Below, piece after piece: positions 1-49,371 of a stretch of 64,000 bases of DNA. Source of the DNA: a bacterium (GTDB lineage Bacteria > Hydrothermota > UBA3073 > JACQXS01 > JAGMCI01); assembly GCA_030018315.1 (NCBI GenBank), contig JASEGA010000003.1:7246-71245 (forward strand), given 5' to 3'. The position numbers were made by a program, and so were the translations under genes. Below the pieces are notes generated by a model. The model was not told the origin of the DNA, searched no databases, and was given only the letters and a program-made list of their open reading frames with translations. How positions within the stretch are numbered: the stretch's first letter is position 1; each line of letters starts with the position of its first letter.

Positions 1-689
1 CTGCTTTAGGTCAATTTGTAGCTGGTGCTGCACATGAGATAAATAATCCGTTGAGTATAATAACTATGGCTACACAGAACTTACTCTCTAAGTTTAAAAA
101 GGCATCACCTGAAGCACTTACCCAAAAAGAGCTCAATAACTTGATAGAGCACTTGGAAATGATAAACAGGCAGTGTATGAGATGCAGTGACATAACTCAT
201 AGCTTACTCACTTTTGCAGGTAGAGGAGAACAGATAGAAAAAGTTCCTATGAGTGTAAATAAAGTTATAGGAGAAGCACTCCGTATAATGGGTCATCAGT
301 TACAACTCTCTAAAATTAAAATAATAGATAAAAGAAAGCCTCTGCCTAAGGTATTAGGTAATAGTTCACGATTAACTCAGGTTTTTATGAATTTAATCTT
401 GAATGCACGTCAGTCTATGCCTAAGGGAGGAAACCTAATTATCAGGACATTTAAGATAGGAGATAAAATAAGGATTGAAATTACTGATACTGGTGAAGGT
501 ATTTCTAAAGAAAACTTAGATAGAGTATTTGAGCCATTTTTTACTACAAGGAAGACAGGAGAGGGGACTGGCCTTGGTCTATCCATTGCCTATTCTATCA
601 TTAAAGAGCATGGCGGTGATATAGAGATAGAAAGTAAATTAGGGAAGGGGACTAAAGTTATCATCACCTTACCAGTAATTCAGCCATAA
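1..689 (+). CDS. Sensor histidine kinase, C-terminal part (5' end lies off-window)
   Basis: Frame 3 reads AHEINNPLS (H-box) from nt 3. G-boxes GEGTGLGLSIAY and the HATPase_c region follow. TAA stop at 687-689. Confidence 0.85.
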   Translation, partial: ALGQFVAGAAHEINNPLSIITMATQNLLSKFKKASPEALTQKELNNLIEHLEMINRQCMRCSDITHSLLTFAGRGEQIEKVPMSVNKVIGEALRIMGHQLQLSKIKIIDKRKPLPKVLGNSSRLTQVFMNLILNARQSMPKGGNLIIRTFKIGDKIRIEITDTGEGISKENLDRVFEPFFTTRKTGEGTGLGLSIAYSIIKEHGGDIEIESKLGKGTKVIITLPVIQP

Positions 690-738
690 AAATACGAATA
701 GGATATTAATAGTTGATGATGAAGTTGACATTTTAAAG

Positions 739-1053
739 ATGCTGTCTAACTACTTGAGAGATAAGGGCTATACAGTAACCACTTGTAGTAGTGGTCGTAA
801 AGCCATTAATAGGGTAAAGAATGAATCACCCGACCTTGTCCTGATAGATATAAGGATGATAGGTCTGAGTGGTGTAGATACAATTAAGCAAATTGAGCGC
901 ATCTGCCCTAAAACGCAATTTATCATTATAACTGGCTATGCAATTACTGAAGATGTTGCCTCTCTATTAGAACAAAATAAAAGAGTGCATGGGTATCTGT
1001 TTAAGCCATTTGATTTAAATGAGCTGCTAAGCAGAATAAAAAATATACTATAA
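739..1053 (+). CDS. Stand-alone response regulator receiver domain (CheY-like)
   Basis: DLVLIDIRM...GYA...FKPFD receiver motifs. The frame is open back to ~691 and encodes ILIVDDEVDIL, so the true start is probably upstream on a non-ATG codon. Confidence 0.8.
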   Translation: MLSNYLRDKGYTVTTCSSGRKAINRVKNESPDLVLIDIRMIGLSGVDTIKQIERICPKTQFIIITGYAITEDVASLLEQNKRVHGYLFKPFDLNELLSRIKNIL

Positions 1054-1071
1054 ATTTTTGGGAAACTCCAG
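1048..1071. repeat. Copy of a 24-30 nt motif TATACTATAAATTTT(T)GGG(G)AAACTCCAG, also found at 53324-53356
   Basis: Near-identical string at the response-regulator stop codon and inside the inverted repeat at 53.3 kb. Confidence 0.6.
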
Positions 1072-1132
1072 ACATTTTCTCATTGACAACTATTATTAAG
1101 TGGGCTAACATAGTAATGTGAGGTAAAAACAG

Positions 1133-1360
1133 ATGAATGAATTTACTGGTAAGGTACACAGTGACCCAAAGATTTGTAGTGGTAAGCCCTGTATTAAGGG
1201 GACACGCATTCCTGTCCATCTTATTCTTGACTTATTGGCTGCTGGTGAAAATTATGAAGGTATAAAGAGAGCATATCCTAATCTTAAAGATGATGACATT
1301 GAGGCCTGTATAAAATATGCTGCCTTCTTAGCCGATGAGGAAGCGGGTGTGATTGTATGA
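1133..1360 (+). CDS. DUF433 domain protein (antitoxin-like partner of DUF5615)
   Basis: GKPCIKGTRIPVHLILDLL...YPNLKDDDIEACIKYA is the DUF433 signature. ATGA overlap with the next gene. Confidence 0.75.
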   Translation: MNEFTGKVHSDPKICSGKPCIKGTRIPVHLILDLLAAGENYEGIKRAYPNLKDDDIEACIKYAAFLADEEAGVIV

Positions 1361-1723
1361 ATATTATCGCTAACAAGAATGTATTTGAACCAATTATTGA
1401 GTTTCTAAAAACTGAGGGTCATAATGTAATAAATGTCAGGGGTACATCTCTTTCAGGTGCTTCAGATGACGAGATATATAAATTAGCTGTCAAAGATAAG
1501 CTTATTATTCTCACTATGGATAAAGACTTTGAGCGCATTGTTAGATTTTCGCCTGAGTGCTGTGGTAATAGTAGTTAAGCTTTACAGGATGTTAGTAGAT
1601 AAAGCTACAGATATATTTAAACGATACTTTAAATCTATGAGTGAGGATGAGATAACTGGGCGGCTTGTGATTATAACCAAGGACGGTATACGATTTAGGA
1701 CTTTAAAAGAAATAACGGAATAA
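1357..1723 (+). pseudogene. DUF5615 (PIN-like, Mut7-C-like) toxin-family gene split by a frameshift near 1560-1570
   Basis: The N-terminal part MNIIANK...LTMDKDFERIVRFSPE is in frame 1. The C-terminal part VVIVVKLYRMLVDKATDIFKRYF is in frame 2. Together they make a full-length DUF5615. Confidence 0.6.
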
Positions 1724-1790
1724 GAACATAAATAGAATACAGGAAACAGAATCCTCTTGTCCACTGTATCTTAAATTTTGGGCTTCGAAC

Positions 1791-1819
1791 TTGACATTTG
1801 GATTTGTAGAATTTATTTA
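1791..1819 (+). promoter_or_regulatory. Candidate sigma70-like promoter TTGACA-N17-TATTTA upstream of gvpA
   Basis: TTGACA at 1791-1796 and TATTTA at 1814-1819. Found by eye only. It sits ~240 nt upstream of gvpA. Confidence 0.3.
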
Positions 1820-1930
1820 CAATTTTTGTCACTATTGTGAATAATACAAGATACTAATTACTACTTAAAACTACATCACACTGTCCCAATAATCCTATAA
1901 TTTACTGACAAAATTTGTCACTTTCAGGGT

Positions 1931-1958
1931 GTAGGGGTTTGATTAATCAGACCCATAC
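1931..1958. repeat. Palindromic element A (GTAGGGGTTTGATTAATCAGACCCATAC), intergenic, diverged right arm
   Basis: Matches the 28-bp palindrome found at 8942, 28983, 34791, 49253 and 8743. Confidence 0.8.
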
Positions 1959-2056
1959 AAAATTAAAATTTTTGTTTGTAGGAATAGAGTTACGAAATTT
2001 TCTAAACTTACTGACACAAGATTTGCTGTAATATTTGATAAAGGAGGTGAATAGAG

Positions 2057-2266
2057 ATGGCTGTAGAGAAGGCAATAGCGTCTTCGAGCTTAGTCGAGGT
2101 TGTCGACAGAATCCTGGATAAGGGTATAGTCATCGATGCCTGGGTCAGGATTTCATTAGTAGGTATCGAGCTACTTGCCATTGAAGCCAGGGTAGTAATA
2201 GCTTCTGTTGAGACCTGGCTAAAGTATGCTGAAGCAGTAGGTCTATTACCAGCAGAGGCAGCATAA
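2057..2266 (+). CDS. gvpA: Gas vesicle structural protein GvpA
   Basis: [63 protein letters not shown] is near-identical to canonical GvpA. Strong SD AGGAGGTG 7 nt upstream. Confidence 0.92.
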
Positions 2267-2279
2267 GAGGTATCACCTC
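2267..2279 (+). terminator. Short hairpin GAGGTATCACCTC directly after the gvpA stop
   Basis: 5-bp stem with a 3-nt loop and no U-tract. The stem resembles element E (GAGGTGCGACCTC). Confidence 0.25.
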
Positions 2280-2532
2280 AAGCTCGAGACAAGCGGAATT
2301 TGGCAACCTCTCTACTGACAGGTAGAGATGCCCTTTGAGTGTACAAAAGTGCTTGTGCCCTTTTGTAGACCCAAGTGTGGTAAGAGCTTAAAGTGCATCT
2401 TCTGCCAAATATATAATATAAGCTAAAGCAAATGAGAAAGATACTAAAAAGTTCCTCCGATGAATCGGAGGTAGGGGTTGGTCATCCGACCCGTATGGCC
2501 GAGGAAGGTATCCCTGCCATAAGGAGGTAAAA

Positions 2533-2928
2533 ATGGATAGGAGGGCGGATGATATAAGGAATCTTGCTTCAGAGATGGCGGCTTCATATGAGGAGCGAAA
2601 GAAGGGGGTTGCCGATCTTATACAGGGGTTTAGGGCTGATAATGAAGCAGCGGCTAAGGAGTGGAGGAATCTGAGAACTCTCATGGCAAGAACGAAAGCA
2701 GGTAAGGTTGTAGGGGTGAAGCCAAAGGTAGCGAAGCCACCTGTCCCGGAAGCTGTCGGGATAGAAGATAGGATTTTGGATGTAGTTAAAAATAGACCCG
2801 GAATAACACTCAAAGAGATAGGCGATGCTTTAGGATTACACTTTGTAAGGATAGCAGCTGATACTAAGTCACTTGTTGAATCAGGCAAGCTTAGGAAGGA
2901 AGGCAAGTTATACTATTTGAGGAAGTAA
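2533..2928 (+). CDS. Hypothetical protein with a C-terminal winged-helix-like segment (possible gvp-associated regulator)
   Basis: SD AAGGAGGT upstream. The C-terminus ILDVVKNRPGITLKEIGDALGL...GKLYYL looks like a wHTH. No confident family assignment. Confidence 0.4.
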   Translation: MDRRADDIRNLASEMAASYEERKKGVADLIQGFRADNEAAAKEWRNLRTLMARTKAGKVVGVKPKVAKPPVPEAVGIEDRILDVVKNRPGITLKEIGDALGLHFVRIAADTKSLVESGKLRKEGKLYYLRK

Positions 2929-2938
2929 AAAGATAATG

Positions 2939-2982
2939 GGGAGACAAAGATAAATTGGTCCGCTTTTATCTTTGTTTCCCCT
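2939..2982 (+). terminator. Long stem-loop (17-bp stem) after ORF 2533-2928
   Basis: GGGGAGACAAAGATAAA-ttggtccgct-TTTATCTTTGTTTCCCC followed by TATTT. Confidence 0.5.
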
Positions 2983-3081
2983 ATTTAGGCTAGGAGGAGT
3001 GTGTCCAAAAACTTAAAAATCACCGCCAGGAGGGTGTTTTCAGATAGTCGGCTAGTTAGATAGGTGGGGAGATAATTATTT

Positions 3082-3279
3082 ATGGCTCAAGACATACGCA
3101 GTGTAGTTGATGATATAATTACAACTTATGAACTAAGGATAAAGGAGATAGGTGATAAATTAAAAGAAAAGGGAACTCAACTTATTGACTACTTTAGAAA
3201 CGAGCGTACTAATCTAACTCATGAGTTAGAATCTATATTAGCAAAAAAAATCATTTACGTAAAAAAGACTTTAGATTAA
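3082..3279 (+). CDS. Hypothetical small coiled-coil protein
   Basis: ORF with TAATG stop/start coupling to the next ORF. No recognisable family. Confidence 0.35.
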   Translation: MAQDIRSVVDDIITTYELRIKEIGDKLKEKGTQLIDYFRNERTNLTHELESILAKKIIYVKKTLD

Positions 3280-3689
3280 TGATGCAAGATATTGAATCAT
3301 ATCAAATGGAGAGAGAAGCTAAACTAAAGCAACTTATTGGAAGCATTAAGGGAGATGAAGTTAGACGAATTCAACGTCTAAGGGAAGCGATTGCAATAAA
3401 CCCGAACCCTAAAGCTATTGATATAATAGCATCTCCAGGAAAAGAGAAGTTAGTTAAAGAGGAGCTTGGCGAGTTTGAGAAAGAGAGAGAAGAGCTTTGC
3501 CTTAATTTAAAGCGACTGTTAGAAAAGGCTGATTCCTTAAATATAAAGGATTTTAAAAAGACATTGAAGAAACTGAAAGCTAAAAAGAATGAAACTGAGT
3601 TTAAAGAAATGACCAAGAGCATTTTATTTGAACAGCAAAAATTGCAAAAAAAGGTATCTATTATTTTATTGATAAACCATTTGGGGTAG
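3279..3689 (+). CDS. Hypothetical coiled-coil protein
   Basis: Translationally coupled to the upstream ORF. Lys/Glu-rich. Confidence 0.35.
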   Translation: MMQDIESYQMEREAKLKQLIGSIKGDEVRRIQRLREAIAINPNPKAIDIIASPGKEKLVKEELGEFEKEREELCLNLKRLLEKADSLNIKDFKKTLKKLKAKKNETEFKEMTKSILFEQQKLQKKVSIILLINHLG

Positions 3690-3773
3690 AAAAAATAACA
3701 AAGGCTATAAAAAGGTACCTTAATAAGAGAGCAAGATTTTTTAGTTAACCCGCCTACGCAGGTAAATTGATAA

Positions 3774-4361
3774 GTGAGAAAACTAATCTATGTCCCTATC
3801 ATTCATAGTGAGGATGATATGGGCTCATTAGCTGAGTTTATGAAGAAAGAATATAAGAGAAAGTATAGCCGACAAAAATGGGAAGAACATACTAAAGCTA
3901 TAAAAGAGATATGGAATAAGATTAGAGAAAAAGTTATTGGGCTTGACTTAGAATGGCAGAAAGTTAGAATATATCAAGATGGTTTACCTGTGAATGGTAA
4001 AGAGCAGTTTATTGTTAAGACATTAGCTGAAAAGGGTAATCTGAACTACAAACTTATTTTGGAGTTAGTCAAAAAGGGTGCTAGAATAGAAGGGACAGAA
4101 GATATGGAGCTTCTTAAGGCTGAATACGCTAATATATTAAGAATTGCACAAGCTAAAAATATAACTGAGAGAGATAGATTAATTGAACAATGTAATCAGG
4201 TAGCTAGTGATTTACTGGTGAAGAGAGACAGATTTATTGCAAACAGGATAAACGAAACTTTAAAAGAAGGTGAGACAGGCATACTATTTTTGGGTATGAT
4301 GCATCAGGTGCATAAGTTAATTCCGAGAGACATTGTTCTTACATATCCATTAAGTGGATGA
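3774..4361 (+). CDS. Hypothetical protein (195 aa)
   Basis: Intact ORF downstream of gvpA. I cannot place it in a family from sequence alone. Confidence 0.35.
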   Translation: MRKLIYVPIIHSEDDMGSLAEFMKKEYKRKYSRQKWEEHTKAIKEIWNKIREKVIGLDLEWQKVRIYQDGLPVNGKEQFIVKTLAEKGNLNYKLILELVKKGARIEGTEDMELLKAEYANILRIAQAKNITERDRLIEQCNQVASDLLVKRDRFIANRINETLKEGETGILFLGMMHQVHKLIPRDIVLTYPLSG

Positions 4362-4374
4362 CAGAGATTTTTTC

Positions 4375-4449
4375 TGGCGGCACCGGGATTTGAACCCGGG
4401 TCTTATGGCTGAGAACCATATGTCCTAGACCGGACTAGACGATGCCGCC
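4375..4449 (-). tRNA. tRNA-Glu (anticodon CUC)
   Basis: The reverse complement folds as a cloverleaf. Acceptor GGCGGCA/TGCCGCC. Anticodon stem TATGG/CCATA with loop TTCTCAG. T-arm CCGGG-TTCAAAT-CCCGG. No encoded CCA. Confidence 0.8.
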
Positions 4450-4545
4450 GTTATCATTGATGTAAACTGAAATCAGTCTCAGCCAGATTCAGTCTATCTC
4501 AATGATTAAATATCAAAAATGGCCTCAACAAAGCCTAAATCTGTG

Positions 4546-5847
4546 TTAATCTGTGGCTCCACTCTTTTTTATTCTTTTCTTAATTTCCTGTTCAAAGCCT
4601 AAATCCCCAGGAGTGTAATATTTACTACCCTTAAGTTTTTCTGGTAAATAGCTTTCCTTAACCCAGTGATTTTTGTAACTATGTGGATACTTGTACCCTT
4701 TACCATAACCTATGTTACGCATAAGTTTGGTTACAGGATTCCTTAAATGTAAAGGAACTGGGAGTGAGCCGTATTTTTTCACATCCTCTAATGCATGTCT
4801 GTAGGCAATGAGTGCAGTATTGCTTTTTGGTGCAGTTGCAAGATAGATTGTTGACTGTGCCAAAGGTAAAAAGCCTTCTGGCATACCTACAAGTTCAATT
4901 GCTGACTTACATGAAGTAGCAACCACAAGTGCTTGCGGGTCTGCATTTCCTATGTCCTCAGATGCAAAAATTACTAACCTACGTACAATAAATATAGGGT
5001 CTTCACCGGACTCTATCATCCTTGCTAACCAGTAAAGGGCAGCGTCGGGATCACTACCACGTAAGCTTTTTATGAATGCAGATATTAAATTATAATGCTC
5101 TTCACCCTTTTTGTCATAAAGTAAAGGACATTCTTGGATAGCTCTCTTAATTGCAGATAAGGTTACATTCTTTTTTCCATTCTTTGGGGCAGTTGTGAGT
5201 GCGACAAATTCAAGAATGTTTAATGCAACACGTGTATCACCATCGGCTACACGAGATAAGTATTCTTTTGTTGATTCTTTAATTTCTAAGTTATGTTCTT
5301 TTAGCCCCTCATCAAGTTTAATAGCTCTATTAATAATTTTGATTATCTCATGCTCACTTAGCTTTTTAAATATGTATACAGTGGTACGGGATAGAAGTGG
5401 TGGTATTAGTTCAAATGATGGGTTCTCTGTAGTTGCCCCTATTAAAATGATTGTCCCATCCTCAACATATGGCAGGAAAGCATCTTGTTGCGCTTTATTG
5501 AAGCGATGTATCTCGTCAATAAATAATATTGTCCGCTTCCCCTGACCTCTATAAAGTTTTGCCTCACGTGATACTCTTCGCACATCGTCTATACCAGAGA
5601 GAACAGCGCTGAAGCTTACAAATCTGTAATCTCTCAATTTTGCAATAATTCGTGCAAGAGTAGTCTTGCCACTTCCGGGTGGACCCCAGAAAACCATACT
5701 CGGTATCTCACCTCTCTCAATTGCTTTTCTTATAGGACCATTTGGGCCTACAAGATGGGATTGACCAACAAATTCAGTTAGAGTCTGTGGTCTTACGCGG
5801 TCAGCTAATGGGGAGCCAACAGATTGGAATTTTTCAAAAAGGTTCAT
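4546..5847 (-). CDS. rarA: Replication-associated recombination protein A (AAA+ ATPase)
   Basis: Walker A GPPGSGKTT and the conserved RarA/MgsA C-terminal domain. Confidence 0.9.
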   Translation of the reverse strand: MNLFEKFQSVGSPLADRVRPQTLTEFVGQSHLVGPNGPIRKAIERGEIPSMVFWGPPGSGKTTLARIIAKLRDYRFVSFSAVLSGIDDVRRVSREAKLYRGQGKRTILFIDEIHRFNKAQQDAFLPYVEDGTIILIGATTENPSFELIPPLLSRTTVYIFKKLSEHEIIKIINRAIKLDEGLKEHNLEIKESTKEYLSRVADGDTRVALNILEFVALTTAPKNGKKNVTLSAIKRAIQECPLLYDKKGEEHYNLISAFIKSLRGSDPDAALYWLARMIESGEDPIFIVRRLVIFASEDIGNADPQALVVATSCKSAIELVGMPEGFLPLAQSTIYLATAPKSNTALIAYRHALEDVKKYGSLPVPLHLRNPVTKLMRNIGYGKGYKYPHSYKNHWVKESYLPEKLKGSKYYTPGDLGFEQEIKKRIKKSGATD

Positions 5848-5886
5848 TAGATTATTCGCTTAGCTCAGAATGACAGTGTATGTATT

Positions 5887-6705
5887 TTATACGAATGGCT
5901 CTCTTACATGCTTTATTTGGGACCAGGTCAAGACTGGCCCATCTTTACACACATATAGCTCACCTACACGACAGTGGTTACATTGACCTAATCCACATGA
6001 CATATTTCTTTCCATTGATAAATATAAATCAGCACCTGAAAAGCCAGCCTCAAGTAATCTTTTAGTTACAAATTTCATCATTATTGGTGGCCCGCATACT
6101 ATAGCAACTGAGTTATTAAAATCAACTGGTATCTCATCAAGAATTACGGTTACAACACCAACCCTACCATTCCAAGTTTCATCCCCTACATCCACTGTGA
6201 GTAAGATGTCAACATTTTCAAGTTTATCCCATTTGGGTAAAAATTGTTTATATACAATATCTTTAGGACTCCTCGCCCCATATCTTATATATATTTTTTT
6301 GTAGTCATTAATATTATGTACAAGTGCTAAAAATAGCGACCTTAGTGGCGCAAATCCTACACCACCACCTACAATAAATACTTCTTTTCCTCTAAACTTT
6401 TCAAGTGGATACCTTTTTCCATAAGGACCACGAATGCCAACTAAATCACCTGGTTTCAAGTTAAAAAGTGCAGTAGTTACCCTACCAACTTTCATAATAG
6501 TGAATTCCAATTTATCGTTATCAAATGGTGATGATGAAGGTGTAAACGGAGCCTCACCAACTCCAGGGACAGTGAGTTCAGCAAATTGACCTGCCTCAAA
6601 ATTTATCGGCTTCGGAGATATAGTAAAAGTTTTTATCCCCGGACTCTCTTCTACAATCTCAGTTAATCTACAGGGCAGTGATTCGTAAGGATTTATAATA
6701 GTCAT
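5887..6705 (-). CDS. FAD/NAD(P)-binding oxidoreductase with C-terminal [2Fe-2S] cluster (AsrB / sulfhydrogenase gamma / PyrK family)
   Basis: 272 aa. GGGVGFAPL nucleotide-binding motif and C-terminal CGLGQCNHC...C cluster. Confidence 0.8.
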   Translation of the reverse strand: MTIINPYESLPCRLTEIVEESPGIKTFTISPKPINFEAGQFAELTVPGVGEAPFTPSSSPFDNDKLEFTIMKVGRVTTALFNLKPGDLVGIRGPYGKRYPLEKFRGKEVFIVGGGVGFAPLRSLFLALVHNINDYKKIYIRYGARSPKDIVYKQFLPKWDKLENVDILLTVDVGDETWNGRVGVVTVILDEIPVDFNNSVAIVCGPPIMMKFVTKRLLEAGFSGADLYLSMERNMSCGLGQCNHCRVGELYVCKDGPVLTWSQIKHVREPFV

Positions 6706-7720: not shown

Positions 7721-8521
7721 TCATTTTAATTTGAGTGCAGGTGTGTTTAAAACAATTTCTTTTAGATTTTGTGCAAAGTTAGTCTTTGAAAGTTTACCTA
7801 CATTTCCTATTGAGGCTTCAAGTCCTTCATCAAAATCTATCTCACCAAGTAGAGGGATATTGAATTTTTTTATTTGTAGGGATAATTCATGAATTGTCCT
7901 TACAGGCTTCATGTTCTCAATAACCCCAATAATCTCGACCTGTCTTGCCTCTTTAAGCATTTTTATCACCTTTTTGACAGTCTCCATCGTCACTTTAGAC
8001 GGTGTAGCTATTATAATGAATTCAGCTCTTTTTATCAACCGAATTACATCTAATGTTGCATCCCCAATACCCGGTGGCATATCAATAATTAGAAAATCTA
8101 ATAAACCCCACCGTGTGATACTTAGCAATTCTATCATTGCATTTGAAATATCAATGCCTCTCAGTGGCGAAGGCTTATCAGCAGCATAATAAATGATAGA
8201 TATAAACTTAATGCCATAAATTTCAGGTGGTATAACTCCTTTATCTTCTTTTGGATAAATTCCTCTTATTCCTAATATTATATCAATAGATGGACTACAA
8301 AAATCCAAATCCAGTAGCCCAACTTTGTATCCTAATTCTGTCAAAGTCAATGCTAAAGTAGATGCAATTAAACTCTTACCAATACCACCTTTACCACCTG
8401 AGACAGCAATTAACCTCTTTATATTTCGTAATCTTTCATCAATTATATTTAAGCGCGGATCCATAATCATTATTGTATGGACACGGCACGCCGTGTCCAT
8501 ACAACTATTTTGTTCCTTCAA
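7721..8521 (-). CDS. Mrp/NBP35 (ApbC) family P-loop ATPase
   Basis: GKGGIGKS deviant Walker A. MinD/ParA-like fold. Confidence 0.8.
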   Translation of the reverse strand: MKEQNSCMDTACRVHTIMIMDPRLNIIDERLRNIKRLIAVSGGKGGIGKSLIASTLALTLTELGYKVGLLDLDFCSPSIDIILGIRGIYPKEDKGVIPPEIYGIKFISIIYYAADKPSPLRGIDISNAMIELLSITRWGLLDFLIIDMPPGIGDATLDVIRLIKRAEFIIIATPSKVTMETVKKVIKMLKEARQVEIIGVIENMKPVRTIHELSLQIKKFNIPLLGEIDFDEGLEASIGNVGKLSKTNFAQNLKEIVLNTPALKLK

Positions 8522-8930
8522 TAGACTCTATAAAGATACCTCGTCCTTTTATAAATTCAAAGTCAGGACTACCACATTTAGGGCACTTAATATAGGCATG
8601 TGCGACTTCGGGGACAAAATGTATTGATTCGGATTCTTCATCATTTAATTCCATATCACCAAAAGCCCAATTATGTTCACAGACTCTACATTTTAAAATA
8701 GCTTTTTCTGTTCCGATCTCTATTTTTGCTTTTCTAAGTGGAGTAGGAGTTTGATTAATCAAACCTCTACATTGGACAATTTCCTTTAGAGCAAATCTAA
8801 ATATCTCCGTATCTATTTGCTGTAATTCGCCCATCTTAATTTTAATCTTATCAATCCTTTTAAGTTTTTCTTTTTCTGCTACCCCAAGTGCAGTAGAAAC
8901 AACTGCCTCTGCTAATGCCCATTCATGCAT
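8505..8930 (-). CDS. hypA: Hydrogenase nickel-incorporation protein HypA carrying an in-frame palindromic-element insertion
   Basis: MHEWALAEAV... start and the CPKCGS zinc motif. Element A variant at 8743-8770 encodes CRGLINQTPTPL in a loop. Confidence 0.8.
   Translation of the reverse strand: MHEWALAEAVVSTALGVAEKEKLKRIDKIKIKMGELQQIDTEIFRFALKEIVQCRGLINQTPTPLRKAKIEIGTEKAILKCRVCEHNWAFGDMELNDEESESIHFVPEVAHAYIKCPKCGSPDFEFIKGRGIFIESIEGTK
8743..8770. repeat. Palindromic element A variant (GTAGGAGTTTGATTAATCAAACCTCTAC) inside hypA
   Basis: In-frame and encodes RGLINQTPT. Confidence 0.8.
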
Positions 8931-8941
8931 ATTGAGTCTTT

Positions 8942-8969
8942 GTAGGGGTTTGATTAATCAAACCCCTAC
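8942..8969. repeat. Palindromic element A, perfect 28-bp palindrome GTAGGGGTTTGATTAATCAAACCCCTAC, intergenic
   Basis: Perfect reverse-complement symmetry. Confidence 0.85.
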
Positions 8970-19621: not shown

Positions 19622-20520
19622 ATTTTATTGTGAATAGTTGTTTTTGTCAAATAAAAATGGTGGCAATAAATTGGGAAGCGATAGATCAAATGACTTTAGC
19701 CAGAACCTCTGATAAAATACCTGCCTGCCGTCGGGCATGGTTGGTAAAATGAGGGACTGGCGATGAACGAGAGCGATTTTATTTACCATATGAGAGTGAA
19801 AATATTTGAAGAAGCTGATAAACAGGAGACTTCTATAGTTTCTCTTTGTAGGAGGTATCATGTGAGTAGGAAATGGTTTTATCTGCAGAACTCGTGAGAA
19901 GAAATATCATTGTTGGGCATACTGGGATTTACAATGTTTTGCGAAGGAGGGGACTAAATACAGCAAAAAAGCGGTTGGAATGGGTAAGAAAATTAAATGG
20001 AGAAATTGTGACTCTTGATGAACTTGCCAGAGATAAAGAGAAATCTAAAACGAACCATATAGAAGCAACTTATCCGGGGCAGTTAGTGAGTGAGAATACT
20101 TTCTATATTGGTTGCTTGTGATTGTTTTTCTTCTTTTGGTGCTGCGAAGATTTATGCTAACAAGACCGCGGATACTTCCTGTGATTTTGTGGGAAACCAT
20201 CTTATCAAAAAATTCACAGGAGTGAGAATAGAAAGACTTCTTACAGACTGTGGGACAGAATATACAACTTGGCATGAGTCTGCAAAGCCAAACCATAAGT
20301 TTGAGAAAATGTGTCATAGGCTTGGGGTTCGGCATACTACTACCAAAGTGAGGCATCCATGGACCAACGGTTATGTTGAGAGGTTAAACAAAACTCTCTT
20401 AGATGAATTTATGGACGATTATAACTATAGAAGGACCCATCAGGGGTATAAGTTAAAGGAAAATGGCTACAATATACCAGCTGAGGCACATTTATCAAAA
20501 AACCTAAAAAAGACTTGACA
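19622..20520 (+). mobile_element. Decayed IS481-family insertion sequence (transposase split by frameshifts and stops)
   Basis: HTH fragment MNESDFIYHMRV..., then the rve integrase core LTDCGTEYTT...HPWTNGYVERLNKTL...YNYRRTHQG, spread across at least 3 frames. Confidence 0.55.
20090..20518 (+). pseudogene. IS481-like transposase, integrase-core fragment
   Basis: rve-domain DDE region without a cognate N-terminus in the same frame. Confidence 0.55.
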
Positions 20521-25306: not shown

Positions 25307-25738
25307 TTGAATCCTCTACCTGTCAAGAAAAAAATTGGGCTCTGTCCCATTGTCGTGTCCACAAATTTAAGGTGTGGAAATAAGAAAGTAGTAAAGTTTT
25401 ATAATAAATGGGGCACCTGTGAACAATGGATAAAAGAAGGCAAGTATGCGTTAAACTGGACGCAGTTATCATGCCAGAAGTTTGTGGAGAACGAGGGTAG
25501 GCTGAAGTTATTTATCCTGGCATATAATCTGGGTAATTTCTTAAGGACACTCGTGTTACCTGATGGGATAAAACATTGGTCGTTAAGAACAATTCAGTTA
25601 AAGCTGATAAAGCTCGGTGCGAGATTAATAAGGCATGCCCGATATTACTGTCTATTATTAGCTGAGTCTTGTATCAGTGAGAGGCTATTTTCTTGCTTGA
25701 TGCGTAATATCAAGCGACTTTGTCCTGCGACCGGGTGA
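25307..25738 (+). pseudogene. IS4/IS5-type DDE transposase C-terminal fragment
   Basis: ...WTQLSCQKFVENEGRLKLFILAYNLGNFLR... matches the conserved C-terminal region of DDE_Tnp_1 transposases. The N-terminus is missing. Confidence 0.5.
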
Positions 25739-28771: not shown

Positions 28772-29500
28772 TTACCTAATTACAATTATTTTCTTTGTTA
28801 TACTGTTATCACCAGCTATAAGCTTACAGAAATATACACCGGACTCAACCTCATTCCCGGCTAAATCTGTACCATCCCAGGAAACAGCAGTGATTAGTGA
28901 TAAGTGGTTATCCGAAGGATCCTGTGGAGTGATAAGTGAGAAAGACTTAACTAATCTGCCAGTTAGGTCATAAATTTGTAGTGTAGGGGTTTGATTAATC
29001 AAACCCCTACCTAATCCCTGAGCCCTAATAACAGTTTTCTTCCTGAATGGATTAGGATAGACTTCTAATACCTCGTCATCCGGTATTCGGATTTCGGATT
29101 TTATCGTCTCTTCTACTCCCTGAGCATCAACCTTTATTAGATAAACATCAAACCCTCCTGCACCATATGAATGAGTCGCTCCAGCTATAATGTAGCCACT
29201 ATCTTTCGTCTGTGCTACTGAGTTGCCATAGTCATCATCGGTTCCACTGTATGTCTTTGTCCAGATTGTGTCACCAGTTGAATTTACCTTTATTAGATAA
29301 ACATTACCAAATCCTGCACCGAATGAGTAAGTATATCCAGTTATAATATAGCCACCATCCAATGTTTGTGCTACTGAATAGCCACGGTCAGAATCAGGCC
29401 CACCATATGTCTTTTCCCAGCCCGCTACTGCTATCTTGGATAAAAGTGGCAACCAAATTATAGCCACCACTGTCATAGCCTTAGCCATTAGTTTATACAT
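28772..29500 (-). CDS. Secreted beta-propeller repeat protein with T9SS C-terminal domain, interrupted in-frame by palindrome A
   Basis: Signal peptide. GYIIAGATHSYGAG repeats. CTD ...SWDGTDLAGNEVESGVYFCKL. Element A at 28983-29010 encodes GRGLINQTPT. Confidence 0.7.
   Translation of the reverse strand: MYKLMAKAMTVVAIIWLPLLSKIAVAGWEKTYGGPDSDRGYSVAQTLDGGYIITGYTYSFGAGFGNVYLIKVNSTGDTIWTKTYSGTDDDYGNSVAQTKDSGYIIAGATHSYGAGGFDVYLIKVDAQGVEETIKSEIRIPDDEVLEVYPNPFRKKTVIRAQGLGRGLINQTPTLQIYDLTGRLVKSFSLITPQDPSDNHLSLITAVSWDGTDLAGNEVESGVYFCKLIAGDNSITKKIIVIR
28983..29010. repeat. Palindromic element A (perfect) inside a CDS
   Basis: GTAGGGGTTTGATTAATCAAACCCCTAC. Confidence 0.85.
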
Positions 29501-34780: not shown

Positions 34781-35773
34781 TTAGACTAATGTAGGGGTTT
34801 GATTAATCAAACCCACAATGAATGGGACTGAGCAACAAGTCTTTTGATATTGTATTTCTAATTCATACTCCTTTGCTTTTCTTATTGCTGCTTCTGACAC
34901 TAATGCGATTCTATTAAATCCATGCTCCACAGCTAATACATCAATCTTAGGGTTATTCCTTGGACGCGCACAGCCCAAAGCTATAGGAGTATTGGGCATT
35001 TTTATTCTAAGCGTTGCCATAATTTTAGCTATAGAGTTAAGGCTTGGTAACGCTATATTTTCCATAGGAGTTCCTAAAAGTGGCATCAACACAACTACAA
35101 CTACACAGGCTACCTTATATTTACTAACTATATTAATAGCTCTGTATTCACCTTTAATTTTGCCATAATGTAAACCAATTATGATATGAGGCACAATAGG
35201 AAGCCCAGCATTTTGTAATGCATCCAATGACTCTATTATCTTGTTTATGCCAAAATCCACATGATAGACCTTTTGCAATGTCTCATCGTCCCCTATTACA
35301 TCAATAAGGGCTTGGTCTACACCTGCATCTTTTAGTTGCACTGCTATCCCAGTGTCTATTATTCCACTATGTATTGAGATAAGTAGACTCGTTTTTTCTT
35401 TTATTTCTTTTATAGCAGGGATAAAATTAGCCCAAGGTAAACTGCCATCTTTTTGGCTTCCACCAGTAATCAGACACCCTATGTTACCATTTCTTTCTAA
35501 CTCTATGCATTTTCTTATTAGTTCAGCTGGTGTAGTCGCAAATATCATTGACTTAAGCATCTTTGAATTACAGTGGTCACAGGTAAGCTCACATTTATCA
35601 CCAGTTATTGATATAGCAGGATATTTACCCCATTCACTATCACATCTGAACATACCAGGGTGATAGAAAGTTATATTCTTGCCAAAGTTATGCCAAGATA
35701 GTTCTCTTGCTTTATTAAGCAAATCCGTTATTTCTACCTCGCCGTCGGGTAGGCGGATTTCGTCATTCGTCAT
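34781..35773 (-). CDS. Radical SAM protein, biotin-synthase-related (second LipS-type candidate) with C-terminal element A fusion
   Basis: CELTCDHC motif. Start taken at MTNDEIRL. The C-terminus ...FIVGLINQTPTLV* is supplied by element A at 34791-34815. Confidence 0.6.
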   Translation of the reverse strand: MTNDEIRLPDGEVEITDLLNKARELSWHNFGKNITFYHPGMFRCDSEWGKYPAISITGDKCELTCDHCNSKMLKSMIFATTPAELIRKCIELERNGNIGCLITGGSQKDGSLPWANFIPAIKEIKEKTSLLISIHSGIIDTGIAVQLKDAGVDQALIDVIGDDETLQKVYHVDFGINKIIESLDALQNAGLPIVPHIIIGLHYGKIKGEYRAINIVSKYKVACVVVVVLMPLLGTPMENIALPSLNSIAKIMATLRIKMPNTPIALGCARPRNNPKIDVLAVEHGFNRIALVSEAAIRKAKEYELEIQYQKTCCSVPFIVGLINQTPTLV

Positions 35774-38663: not shown

Positions 38664-39584
38664 TTATTGAAAAAGCCCAGTTGATAAATACCGCTCTCCA
38701 GTATCAGGTAAAATCACTACTATTAGCTTACCTTTGTTTGCATCTCTTTTTGCAACTTGTAGTGCTCCCCAAACTGCAGTACCTGATGAGATTCCTACGA
38801 GCAAGCCTTCATCCTTTGCTAACTTTCGTGTCATATTCATTGCCTCTTCATTTGTTACTTGTATTATCTCGTCAATGATATCAGTGTTTAAAACAGCTGG
38901 CACAAACCCTGCCCTTATTCCCTGGATTTTATGAGGACAGAGCTGTCCACCAGATAGGACAGGAGAGTCCTTTGGCTCAACAGCTATTGCTTTAAATTCA
39001 GGTTTTCTATTTTTAATCACTTCAGCAACCCCGGTAATAGTGCCACCAGTCCCTACACCAGCAACCAAAATATCTACTTTACCATCTGTATCTCTCAAAA
39101 TCTCCTCTGCAGTCGTCTTTCTGTGTATTTCTGGGTTAGCTGGATTCTTAAACTGTTGTGGGATGAAGTATTTTGGGTCAGAGAAAGCAAGTTCATCTGC
39201 CTTCTCAACTGCACCTTTCATTCCTCTCTCTCCTGGTGTTAAAATAAGGTCTGCCCCAAATGCCTTGAGTAAAGCCCTTCATTCAACACTCATTGTATCA
39301 GGCATTGTAAGACATAACTTATAGCCTTTAACAGCGCACACAAATGCTAATGCTATACCTGTATTACCACTTGTAGGCTCAAGAATAACAGTATCTTCTT
39401 TTATAAGGCCAGCTTTTTCGGCTGCCTCAATCATTGCTACACCTATTCTATCCTTTACTGATGACAACGGATTAAAAGACTCTAACTTTGCTACCGCTTT
39501 CGCTTTTACCCCTTTAGTTATTTTATTCAACATCACCAAAGGAGTATTGCCAACTAACTCAGTCACATCCTTAGCAATCTTCAT
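38664..39584 (-). pseudogene. Cysteine synthase (cysK-like) interrupted by an in-frame TGA at 39280-39282
   Basis: The two ORFs (39279-39584 and 38664-39221) are collinear in one frame. They read ...[23 protein letters not shown], and Arg is expected at the stop position. Confidence 0.7.
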
Positions 39585-47729: not shown

Positions 47730-48899
47730 TTATGGCCTGGGTTTACCAAAAGGTGATATTTCTCTAAGCCTATTAACAACACCAGGAAATACATCAATCA
47801 CTCGCTCTATATCCGCATCTGTATTATCTCTGCCAAGACTGAATCTTAAAGATGAGTGTGCAACTTGAGGTGGTATTCCCATAGATAGTAGGACATGGGA
47901 AGGCTCAAGTGACCCAGAAGTACAGGCAGACCCTGAAGATGCAGATATACCTTCATAATCCAAATTCAATAACATAGATTCACCCTCCACATATTTTACA
48001 CAAATTGATAGCGTCCCACTAAGCCTATTTTCTGGATGTCCTGTTAGAATAACATCCGGTATCTTATTCATTATACCATTATACAACTTATCCCTTAATC
48101 TTTTAAGCCTCGTATCTTCTTCGCTCATTTCACTCCCTGCTATTTCACACGCTTTACCTAGCCCTACAATGCCTGGAACATTTTCAGTACCAGCCCTACG
48201 ATTGAATTCATGATGACCACCATGGATGAGTGGGTCAACCTTTGTCCCTCTTTTAATATAAAGTGCACCTACTCCTTTGGGACCGTAAAATTTGTGTCCT
48301 GATAAAGAAAGTAAATCTACACCAAGCTTGTTAACATCTATAGGAATCTTACCCGCTGTCTGCACTGCATCTGTATGGAAATATATACCACGCTCTTTTG
48401 CAAACTTTGCAATCTCCTGGATTGGCTCAATTGTGCCGACTTCGTTGTTAGCATGCATAATAGTGATTAAAATTGTTTTATTAGTAATTGCAGCCTTGAG
48501 TTCGTCCAAATCAACAACCCCATATTTATCTACACCAACATAACTTACATTAAATCCCTGCCGCTCAAGCCACCTGCATGGGTTAATTACTGCATGATGC
48601 TCAATCTTTGATGTAATTATATGATTGCCCTTATCCTTATTTGCATAAGCAATTCCTTTAATTGCAAAATTATTTGCTTCAGTCCCACTTGCTGTGAACA
48701 CAATTTCCTTTGAATCCGCACATAAAAGTTTAGCTACTTTATCTCTTGCATCTTCAATGGCTTCACGCGCCTCACTTCCAAATTTATATATGCTTGATGG
48801 ATTACTGTATAACTCATTAAAATATGGACGCATCGCATCAATCACTCTTGGGTCAGTAGGTGTAGTAGCATTATGGTCAAGATAGATAAACTTAGCCAT
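47730..48899 (-). CDS. iscS: Cysteine desulfurase (IscS/NifS)
   Basis: SGHKFYGPKG PLP lysine motif and SSGSACTS active-site Cys loop. Confidence 0.9.
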   Translation of the reverse strand: MAKFIYLDHNATTPTDPRVIDAMRPYFNELYSNPSSIYKFGSEAREAIEDARDKVAKLLCADSKEIVFTASGTEANNFAIKGIAYANKDKGNHIITSKIEHHAVINPCRWLERQGFNVSYVGVDKYGVVDLDELKAAITNKTILITIMHANNEVGTIEPIQEIAKFAKERGIYFHTDAVQTAGKIPIDVNKLGVDLLSLSGHKFYGPKGVGALYIKRGTKVDPLIHGGHHEFNRRAGTENVPGIVGLGKACEIAGSEMSEEDTRLKRLRDKLYNGIMNKIPDVILTGHPENRLSGTLSICVKYVEGESMLLNLDYEGISASSGSACTSGSLEPSHVLLSMGIPPQVAHSSLRFSLGRDNTDADIERVIDVFPGVVNRLREISPFGKPRP

Positions 48900-49371
48900 C
48901 CTTCCCCCTCTGTTTGTATTCGTCCAAAATATCTTGCAAGCTCATATCATTAAGAATCTTGCTAAATTCCTTACTTAACCTATTCCATACAACTCTTGCT
49001 ACACAGTTATTTATTCTATCACACTCTCCGGTTGAGGTTTCACCTCTTGGCACACAGTTTGAAAGCTTAATAGGACCCTCAAGTGCATATAAAATATCGC
49101 CTACCTTTATTTTCTTAAGTGGCTTTTTAAGTTTATACCCACCACCAGGTCCTCGCACAGATTCAACCAATCCCGCTATATTAAGGTCGTGAAAAATTCT
49201 CTCCAAGTAAGCCATAGGAATACACTGTTTTTCAGATACACTCTTAACCGAAGTAGGGGCTTGATTAATCAAACCCCTACCTTGCCCATTTTTAGCTTGC
49301 CTCGCCAAGTCAAGGCGGGCAAGCTCAATCATTGCCCGTAGCCCATATCTACCTTTACTTGAAATCCTCAT
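48892..49371 (-). CDS. Rrf2-family regulator (IscR-like) with in-frame palindrome A insertion
   Basis: MRISSKGRYGLRAM... Rrf2 N-terminus and CVPRGETSTGECDRINNC ligand cysteines. Element A at 49253-49280 encodes GRGLINQAPTS just upstream of the HTH. Confidence 0.8.
   Translation of the reverse strand: MRISSKGRYGLRAMIELARLDLARQAKNGQGRGLINQAPTSVKSVSEKQCIPMAYLERIFHDLNIAGLVESVRGPGGGYKLKKPLKKIKVGDILYALEGPIKLSNCVPRGETSTGECDRINNCVARVVWNRLSKEFSKILNDMSLQDILDEYKQRGKDG
49253..49280. repeat. Palindromic element A variant (GTAGGGGCTTGATTAATCAAACCCCTAC) inside the iscR-like gene
   Basis: In-frame insertion. Confidence 0.8.

Follow-up and report, generated by a model that had tools for sequence, protein, structure and literature searches.

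A probably truncated gas-vesicle gene cluster in a Hydrothermota genome retains gvpA, GvpC-like genes and a conserved distal accessory gene

Introduction

Gas-vesicle (gvp) gene clusters have been described in cyanobacteria, haloarchaea and Serratia. In Anabaena flos-aquae, gvpA is followed on the same strand by gvpC, which encodes an all-helical repeat protein (PF01304; structure 8GBS; PMC9994262) whose 33-residue repeat spans four GvpA subunits (PMC9994262), and gvpN, J, K, F and G follow directly. Haloarchaeal GvpC (Halobacterium salinarum) combines six to seven helical repeats of 32–40 aa with a globular C-terminal domain that carries a zinc-finger motif and binds other Gvp proteins, including GvpN and GvpO (PMC9501494). 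In Serratia sp. ATCC 39006, gvpA1 is likewise followed by gvpC and all assembly genes lie within a 16.6-kb locus; transcription of gvpA1 needs sigma-54 and the NtrC-like GvrA, plus GvrB and GvrC, while GvpC strengthens the vesicles and is not needed to form them (PMC4982088). The genes gvpA, C, F, G, K, L and N are conserved across all gvp clusters (PMC9501494), and the systems that have been dissected require GvpF, G, J/M, K and L, most of them also GvpN (PMC9501494, PMC4982088). Here we analyze a gvpA locus in a 64,000-nt stretch of a Hydrothermota bacterium (assembly GCA_030018315.1, contig JASEGA010000003.1, positions 7,246 to 71,245, forward strand; hereafter the window), where gvpA is followed by four open reading frames (ORFs), ORF2–ORF5.

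As in Anabaena and Serratia, gvpA in the window precedes same-strand genes for GvpC-like proteins; unlike in the cyanobacteria, gvpN, J, K, F and G do not follow. We propose that the locus is probably a truncated gvp cluster, in which the head and the tail of a canonical cluster are present and the central assembly block is missing. The head would comprise gvpA and the GvpC-like outer-shell genes ORF2 and ORF3/ORF4, and the tail ORF5, a conserved accessory gene that probably encodes a regulatory enzyme.

Results

The window gvpA is canonical

Judged by its profile and structure matches, gvpA is canonical, in agreement with the first-pass annotation of the sequence. The protein scores 62.2 bits against Pfam Gas_vesicle (PF00741; cutoff 25) and 126 bits against the NCBIfam GvpA model (PRK09371, NF006874; cutoff 100), and aligns near residue-for-residue with the solved shell proteins of Anabaena (8GBS, E 2e-29) and B. 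megaterium (7R1C, E 5e-26). Its core is nearly identical to that of Anabaena GvpA, including helix α-2, where GvpC binds. Relative to the majority of 91 GvpA copies, the core changes are conservative or fall at variable positions, with no deviant residue; larger differences are confined to the tail, where the alignment is less certain. The gene is preceded by a strong Shine-Dalgarno sequence, AAGGAGGTG. The coordinates first assigned to gvpA and the ORFs downstream of it were confirmed (Table 1).

The central assembly block is missing

We compared the window with 80 loci retrieved with GvpA from GTDB species representatives (80–92% identity, many phyla, flanks of up to 10 kb). Below, L001–L090 denote fetched DNA loci and P-numbers (P0025, P0112 and so on) homologous proteins. 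L001, a Logan contig from run SRR23186779, has the same gene order as the window and extends it 8.3 kb upstream.

Neither the 64-kb window nor the additional 8.3 kb (72 kb in total) contains gvpN, gvpF/L, gvpG, gvpJ or gvpK, so that the absence of gvpN, F/L, J, K and a second GvpA-type gene first noted within 2 kb of gvpA holds much more widely. A phmmer comparison of every window ORF with the ORFs of the 80 gvpA loci gave no further gvp gene: proteins that recur at gvp loci were matched only by gvpA, ORF2–ORF5, the upstream kinase and response regulator, and rarA, the last through generic AAA+ similarity. Searches by tblastn with the GvpN, GvpF/L, GvpJ/K, zinc-finger, Hsp20 and CDC48 families recovered no gene and no fragment, and pseudogene remnants of assembly genes in intergenic DNA were rejected on the same searches. 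For gvpG the negative comes from the all-against-all comparison, made without a dedicated GvpG seed. The sole AAA+ gene found is rarA, with an MgsA_C domain and on the opposite strand, as originally reported; the searched DNA holds no gvpN, nor does it hold the gvpF/L, gvpG, gvpK or second GvpA-like gene (J/M/S) of a complete cluster.

This is unusual among the comparison loci. Where at least 3.5 kb of downstream sequence was available (58 loci), gvpN lies within the fetched flank in 52, nearly always 0.7–3.3 kb past gvpA, and gvpN or gvpF/L is found in 54. Only 4 of the 58 have neither, and the window thus belongs to a small minority and is not a standard gvp cluster, as the initial reading had held. 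Clusters from Ignavibacteria, Cloacimonetes, Bacteroidota and candidate phyla (L014, L006, L023, L012, L075; L082–L084) share both the families of the window and their order: a response regulator, gvpA, GvpC-like genes of type 1 and/or type 2 (defined below) and, distally, a homolog of ORF5. In these clusters, 6–8 kb of assembly genes, among them a DnaJ-type zinc-finger protein, gvpN, Hsp20, a CDC48-like ATPase and GvpL/F, precede the ORF5 homolog, whereas in the window ORF4 and ORF5 are 84 bp apart. The full block in relatives comprises the zinc-finger protein, gvpN, an Hsp20/GvpH-like gene, the CDC48-like ATPase, gvpF/L, gvpG, gvpJ and gvpK. A literature search returned nothing relevant on an orphan gvpA of this kind.

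Since the studied systems need GvpF, G, J/M, K and L, usually with GvpN, the locus alone cannot be expected to build vesicles. One could instead envisage a reduced or exapted system, in which GvpA, the GvpC-like proteins and ORF5 work without canonical assembly factors, either to form vesicle-like structures from a minimal gene set or with GvpA used for another purpose; it would account for three gene types being kept intact with their regulators while all else is absent. We consider this very unlikely, because every dissected system requires the assembly factors listed above (PMC9501494, PMC4982088) and because no second example was found among the 80 gvpA loci or nine fetched loci of the ORF5 family. 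Moreover, a word-index search of 5.8 billion proteins with ORF2 returned ORF2 itself alone and no close relative, so the arrangement is not known to be conserved. Slimmer still are the chances of its strongest form, a self-sufficient system of GvpA, GvpC-like proteins and ORF5 under two-component control, serving to make vesicle-like structures or in a role other than buoyancy.

Two side observations concern the assembly block of the relatives. A small protein with a DnaJ-type CXXCXGXG zinc finger recurs between the GvpC-like genes and gvpN in 23 loci (for example L014 11568–11957, L006 5080–5472 and 7192–7596, and L012 1778–2134), and a fusion of GvpL/F to a DnaJ J-domain is present in L014 and on the P0025 contig. 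Together these point to chaperone links in such clusters.

ORF2–ORF4 are GvpC-like

There is a strong case, from gene position and transitive homology, that ORF2–ORF4 are GvpC-like; membership of the curated GvpC family is not claimed. None of ORF2–ORF5 attains a curated Pfam or NCBIfam cutoff, and the same is true of ten homologs scanned. The neighbors of gvpA are thus unrecognizable, as first described, to curated models, but they are recognizable by comparison with other gvp loci, as GvpC-like proteins and a member of the ORF5 family.

ORF2–ORF4 lie directly downstream of gvpA on the same strand, the position of gvpC, and in local phmmer searches each matches proteins encoded directly downstream of gvpA in Cloacimonetes, Ignavibacteria, Bacteroidota, Planctomycetes, Patescibacteria, Chlorobi, cyanobacteria and other groups. 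A profile iterated from fused ORF3+ORF4 collected 93 proteins from 59 of the 80 loci, all of them encoded on the same strand as gvpA and within about 2.7 kb downstream; a gene of this superfamily is present in 55 of the 71 loci with enough flank. Two forms can be distinguished: (i) type 1 proteins of about 200–230 aa, with a conserved head ('DM+.L.E.IVSSYE.R') followed by repeats of 51 or 58 residues ('L..F..E.EE...L+.LL.K....I+DFK'); and (ii) type 2 proteins, in which a Lys/Pro-rich linker connects head and repeats to a winged helix at the C-terminus. Periods of 33, 40, 51, 58 and 65 residues are among those seen in the superfamily, and no Pfam or NCBIfam model covers the forms with a period other than 33.

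Those members of the iterated set that come from cyanobacteria are true GvpC, with PF01304 scores of up to 176 bits. A profile built from seven cyanobacterial GvpC sequences matches non-cyanobacterial type 2 proteins (L003, 2e-11; L006, 6.5e-11; L075, 5.6e-8; L012, 2.8e-4) and not ORF2–ORF4 themselves, which have no PF01304 match and reach E 0.03–0.11 with the cyanobacterial GvpC hidden Markov model (HMM) in a 5-sequence search. Because the L006 and L012 proteins match both ORF2 and the GvpC profile, ORF2 connects transitively to GvpC in the broad sense. The prospect, raised at first pass, that the downstream ORFs match known Gvp families is thereby borne out for GvpC only, transitively and not by curated models. 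PF01304 membership of the type 1 family is not claimed either, its hhalign match being weak.

In addition, the window proteins differ in detail from cyanobacterial GvpC. No 33-residue period was detected in ORF3+ORF4, the type 1 period being 51 or 58 residues; a 51-residue helix would be ~76.5 Å long, close to six GvpA subunits at ~12.7 Å each, in parallel with the four subunits per 33-residue repeat in Anabaena. ORF2 consists of a single helix plus a winged helix, and the type 1 gene of the window is in two pieces. In architecture, ORF2 and the type 2 proteins resemble haloarchaeal GvpC, with helical repeats and a globular C-terminal domain, although ORF2 has a winged helix in place of the zinc-finger motif and one repeat in place of six or seven.

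ORF2 is a short type 2 protein with a winged helix

By alignment to its relatives, ORF2 is a short type 2 GvpC-like protein, the minimal repeat-plus-winged-helix form. One long helix (residues 3–56) is joined by a Lys/Pro-rich linker to a compact winged helix (about residues 75–131), and along its full length ORF2 aligns to type 2 proteins from their last repeat through the linker to the winged helix. Its phmmer matches are gvpA-adjacent proteins (L012, 2e-13; L006 3911–5011, 1.3e-10; L023, 2.8e-9). A full HMMER scan of 1.84e9 representatives gave 159 relatives, to whose C-terminal ~125 residues ORF2 aligns; most have 200–340 aa, and a few are as short as ORF2 (P0298, 136 aa; P0271, 131 aa).

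The winged helix (MarR/TrmB/Z-alpha-like), already noted in the first-pass annotation, is supported at family level: the family profile A4 matches SlyA (1.7e-4) and 4hob (2.6e-4) in the PDB, and Pfam TrmB is found in 6 of 22 family members (best 6.5e-7), with TrmB or MarR among the member matches. ORF2 alone gives E of about 0.1, and its AlphaFold2 (AF2) model has an H-H-H-wing topology consistent with a winged helix, at low confidence (predicted local distance difference test, pLDDT, 65). Cyanobacterial GvpN, of about 420–480 aa, ends in the same domain (L058 11701–12966, L035 11680–13134, L051 11216–12472, L047 5970–7223 on the minus strand, and others). This implies that the winged helix is a gvp-specific C-terminal module common to GvpN and GvpC-like proteins. 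Because GvpN also ends in it, its presence hints at a gvp-specific docking role instead of, or besides, DNA binding. A literature search found nothing relevant on GvpC with a winged helix.

ORF3 and ORF4 are one split gene

The TAATG overlap of ORF3 and ORF4 confirms the stop/start coupling seen originally, and the alignments show the two ORFs to be one type 1 GvpC-like gene split by a 1-nt deletion. ORF3 aligns to the head (residues ~4–66) of gvpA neighbors of ~200–230 aa in L004, L022, L023 and L052, and ORF4 starts exactly where these homologs continue past the head ('...KKDFDxMM..I..Q.ERE'): residue 1 of ORF4 aligns with residue 68 of the L052 protein and residue 78 of the L029 protein ('MM..I..Q.ERE'). 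Fused ORF3+ORF4 is colinear with type 1 proteins and exactly one residue short at the junction, and a 1-nt deletion would thus have made both the TAA stop and the overlapping ATG. ORF4 has no Shine-Dalgarno sequence of its own. With ORF2–ORF4 GvpC-like and ORF5 an accessory gene (see below), the idea that these ORFs encode diverged GvpG/K/F-like assembly factors did not hold.

Could the frameshift, or the missing middle of the cluster, come from sequencing error or misassembly? An artefact would fit the origin of the sequence in a metagenome bin and the disruption of several window genes. We nevertheless judge this highly improbable: L001 agrees in gene order and in these two ORFs (65 + 136 aa), two genes are also called in the metagenome-assembled genome (MAG) deposited at NCBI (65 + 127 aa), and the locus is flanked by ordinary housekeeping genes on a continuous 85-kb contig.

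ORF5 belongs to an accessory family at the tail of gvp clusters

Its genomic contexts mark ORF5 as a conserved accessory gene that normally closes gvp clusters. Searches detected 1133 homologs, none with a Pfam domain and all named 'hypothetical'. Relatives at 77–78% identity follow GvpK, Zn-ribbon, GvpL/F, GvpJ-like and PH-like/Hsp20 genes; a relative at 63% identity stands last in a large cluster that also contains CDC48, five GvpL/F genes, GvpG and GvpK; and in the L014 array the homolog, 8 kb downstream of gvpA, is flanked by the GvpL/F-DnaJ fusion and Hsp20. Family members are found in gvp clusters in L011, L014, L072, L082–L084, L087–L089 and the P0025 contig, normally at the distal end. 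Other contexts are a CDC48-like ATPase (L086) and a kinase with a response regulator (L090), and a fusion to a response-regulator receiver domain occurs in the relative P0112.

The confident AlphaFold model of ORF5 (pLDDT 89, predicted template-modelling score, pTM, 0.83) has an alpha/beta three-layer fold. Invariant residues include R2, P8, H11, Y67-Q-D-G70, G107-T-E109, R151, E167, G174 and H177, of which H11, D69, E109 and H177, placed by their sequence positions relative to the predicted strands, appear at or near strand ends. No PDB fold or sequence match was obtained (best Foldseek PDB hit E 0.19, TM-score 0.27). Assignment as a TraB/PrgY/GumN (TIKI-type) hydrolase was rejected: the score is 14.3 bits against a cutoff of 26.8 (E 0.036), with no support from Foldseek or PDB-sequence searches. 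We infer that ORF5 is a probably metal-dependent enzyme through which two-component signalling would act on the formation or turnover of vesicles.

A protein of 436–443 aa with no Pfam annotation on record sits between the GvpJ-like gene and the ORF5 homolog in several clusters (L082 2923–4233, L083 2093–3424, L088 552–1862). We considered it as a GvpC-like counterpart and rejected this, as its N-terminal part has two PH/GRAM-like repeats and its C-terminal part is an Hsp20 (GvpH-like) domain. The cluster of the nearest ORF5 relative also contains a gene for a 23S rRNA-intervening-sequence (four-helix-bundle) protein (L082 2149–2586), and another such gene lies upstream of the window's kinase (L001 3893–4342).

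A possible single internal deletion or split cluster

With evenly balanced confidence, we read the locus as what remained of a cluster after one internal deletion had removed the DNA between the gvpC-like genes and ORF5, an event that would be recent enough for gvpA and ORF5 to be still intact. One deletion in an array of the L014 type would give exactly the head-to-tail order observed. We favor a remnant because the gvpC-like gene is split, other genes nearby are broken, and no GvpF ortholog from this MAG was found among the best 120 matches in the search described below. Given the identities of ORF2–ORF5, gvpA is not orphaned among unrelated genes, one of the two possibilities first raised; it sits in a genuine gvp fragment that lacks assembly genes.

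Disruptions elsewhere in the window include a frameshift in the DUF5615/PIN-like gene of a DUF433–DUF5615 pair (1357–1723) and an in-frame stop at a conserved Arg position in a paralog of the cysteine-synthase gene cysK (38664–39584; one of several paralogs). Transposase/integrase fragments of insertion sequences (IS) lie at 19873–20518 and 25307–25738. Together, these disruptions point to gene decay that is still under way in this genome, or to errors in sequencing.

GvpF and ORF5 have diverged to a similar extent in the nearest lineage (80% versus 83% identity), and a GvpF ortholog of this MAG would thus be expected to be ~70–75% identical to L082 GvpF and to rank in the top 5. None from this MAG is among the best 120 of 1240 matches to L082 GvpF (at least 52% identity); this was an indirect test for a complete gvp operon elsewhere in the genome, which the first-pass annotation had named as a refuting case. 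Two '[bacterium]' matches belong to another MAG (MDO946...), and an unassigned high-identity Logan match, P0134, comes from a different sample. All ten window proteins tested are present in the protein collection used for this search.

Several points weigh against a remnant. The GvpF test assumes vertical co-inheritance with ORF5 and covers the best 120 of 1240 matches; the genome is covered over 72 kb, and the MAG may be incomplete; and surveys have found gvp genes hundreds of kb from the main cluster (PMC10344784). gvpA shows no decay and its Shine-Dalgarno sequence is perfect, ORF2 is intact and has equally short relatives, ORF5 keeps all 25 family-invariant residues, and the regulators and promoter-like elements remain in place. 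Since GvpC is dispensable for vesicle formation in Serratia (PMC4982088), a split gvpC-like gene need not mean that function is lost. Finally, the type 1 (ORF3/ORF4) family matches cyanobacterial GvpC weakly (HMM E 0.006–0.05; hhalign probability 5.5%, E 0.007).

Alternatively, the cluster may be split but functional, with the assembly genes elsewhere in the genome of an organism that makes gas vesicles, which we regard as a real, if tentative, possibility. The locus would then be a highly expressed structural operon with its own kinase/response-regulator and sigma-54-like control, and the TAATG-coupled ORF3/ORF4 a tolerated or evolved two-piece GvpC. The intact gvpA, ORF2 and ORF5, the strong ribosome-binding sites on gvpA and ORF2, the short ORF2-like proteins found elsewhere and the tandem series of small GvpC-like genes at several loci (L029 and L015 among them) are all consistent with such an arrangement. 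There are also precedents: L014 has neither GvpJ nor GvpK within 10 kb on either side of gvpA, which points to multi-locus organization in relatives, non-contiguous clusters have been reported (PMC10344784), and haloarchaeal gvpACNO and gvpD–M are separate transcription units (PMC9501494). On the other hand, an ortholog of GvpF at the expected identity did not appear in the search above, the gvpC-like gene is frameshifted with other pseudogenes nearby, and among the closest relatives physical linkage joins ORF5 to the assembly genes and not to gvpA, so that a split would need a more complex rearrangement than a deletion.

Upstream region and flanking features

The kinase and response regulator upstream of gvpA (Table 1) are putative regulators of the locus. 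Histidine kinase and response-regulator genes recur beside gvp genes (for example in L029, L006, L083 and L084), and in 26 of 60 comparison loci a response-regulator gene lies on the same strand no more than 1.5 kb upstream of gvpA. Two 27-nt direct repeats are candidate regulator-binding sites (upstream activating sequences, UAS), and a sigma-54-like element may, tentatively, be the gvpA promoter: its spacing and −12 part fit, and the −24 GG reads GA (one mismatch). Elements of this kind with at most one mismatch occur upstream of 9 of 90 gvpA copies, compared with 1.2% of random 250-nt windows, an enrichment of about 9-fold. In contrast to Serratia, with its NtrC-like regulator, the window has a receiver-only response regulator and an imperfect −24 element.

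Table 1. Features at the gvpA end of the window (window coordinates)
Feature	Position	Strand	Description
Sensor histidine kinase, C-terminal part	51–689	+	PAS/HisKA/HATPase_c; 737 aa in full on L001
Response regulator	739–1053	+	Receiver only, 104 aa; Pfam Response_reg
27-nt direct repeat, two copies	1807–1833, 1896–1922	+	81% identity; palindromic core of TGACAAAATTTGTCA type
Sigma-54-like −24/−12 element	2012–2026	+	TGACAC-N5-TTGC, 30 nt before gvpA ATG
gvpA	2057–2266	+	Major gas-vesicle shell protein, 69 aa, intact
ORF2	2533–2928	+	131 aa; starts 266 bp past gvpA
Stem-loop	2938–2981	+	Between ORF2 and ORF3; arms 2938–2954 and 2965–2981
ORF3	3082–3279	+	65 aa
ORF4	3279–3689	+	136 aa; TAATG overlap with ORF3
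ORF5	3774–4361	+	195 aa, GTG start
tRNA-Glu(CTC)	4375–4449	−	Downstream boundary of the gvp fragment, outside it
RarA/MgsA gene	4546–5847	−	RuvB_N, AAA and MgsA_C domains; next AAA+ gene

About 100 bp upstream of gvpA lies one copy (1931–1958) of a 28-nt perfect palindrome, GTAGGGGTTTGATTAATCAAACCCCTAC, of which the 64 kb contain six copies where none is expected by chance (the others at 8743–8770, 8942–8969, 28983–29010, 34791–34818 and 49253–49280). Three copies are in-frame within ORFs, encoding 'RGLINQ(T/A)PT' in a hypA-like gene (8505–8930), a secreted protein (28772–29500) and an Rrf2/IscR-like regulator (48892–49371); the palindrome resembles the Rickettsia-type palindromic elements that insert into coding sequence. 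A diverged copy (2472–2498) follows a hairpin (2454–2471) in the gvpA–ORF2 spacer (2267–2532), which is strongly structured (z about −3) and, at 266 bp, longer than in most loci (about 110–130 bp).

The stem-loop between ORF2 and ORF3 proved real: its 17-bp stem has a predicted energy of −25.2 kcal/mol (z = −3.6). It is possibly a terminator, an attenuator or an mRNA-stabilizing hairpin; the U-tract is weak, and a terminator consensus scan did not call it. It is unique within the window and was rejected as a repeated element. The tRNA reported after the four ORFs is tRNA-Glu(CTC), the only known RNA family recovered within positions 1–6000. Because no tRNA-derived direct repeat was found upstream, we rejected it as an island integration site.

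L001 and the window agree in gene order from threonyl-tRNA synthetase through hypA. Upstream, the 8.3 kb of L001 contain threonyl-tRNA synthetase, RecX, the PAS histidine kinase, the receiver-only response regulator and the DUF433/DUF5615 pair, and no gvp gene. From a reading of the translations, together with the negative gvp-family searches, the remaining ~60 kb of the window encode housekeeping functions and energy metabolism. The window proteins are singletons at 90% identity; in the deposited NCBI MAG they carry locus tags from QMD71_02040 onward, on the 85-kb contig mentioned above, and GvpA has the accession MDI6839629.1.

Discussion

In a complete cluster, the parts kept here would act as follows. 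GvpA would polymerize into the ribbed shell, as established for its homologs, and the helical GvpC-like proteins would run along the ribs at the outer surface, making the shell stiffer. The winged helix of ORF2 could be a globular docking or DNA-binding module, and ORF5 may act downstream of a two-component system. Tentatively, the upstream kinase and response regulator, with the sigma-54-like promoter, would control gvpA.

On present evidence, the gvpA annotation here should not be read as 'makes gas vesicles'. The locus further directs attention to two gvp-linked families, both widespread and both without a Pfam or NCBIfam model. One comprises GvpC-like proteins with varied repeat periods, which often end in a winged helix that is also found on cyanobacterial GvpN; the other is the ORF5 family, with its link to two-component signalling. 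The two families matter for annotating gvp clusters in uncultured phyla and also for engineering acoustic reporter genes, where shell stiffness is set by GvpC and yield is affected by cluster genes that lack annotation (PMC10344784). The main value of the locus is thus a caution in annotation and a pointer to two gvp-linked families without curated models.

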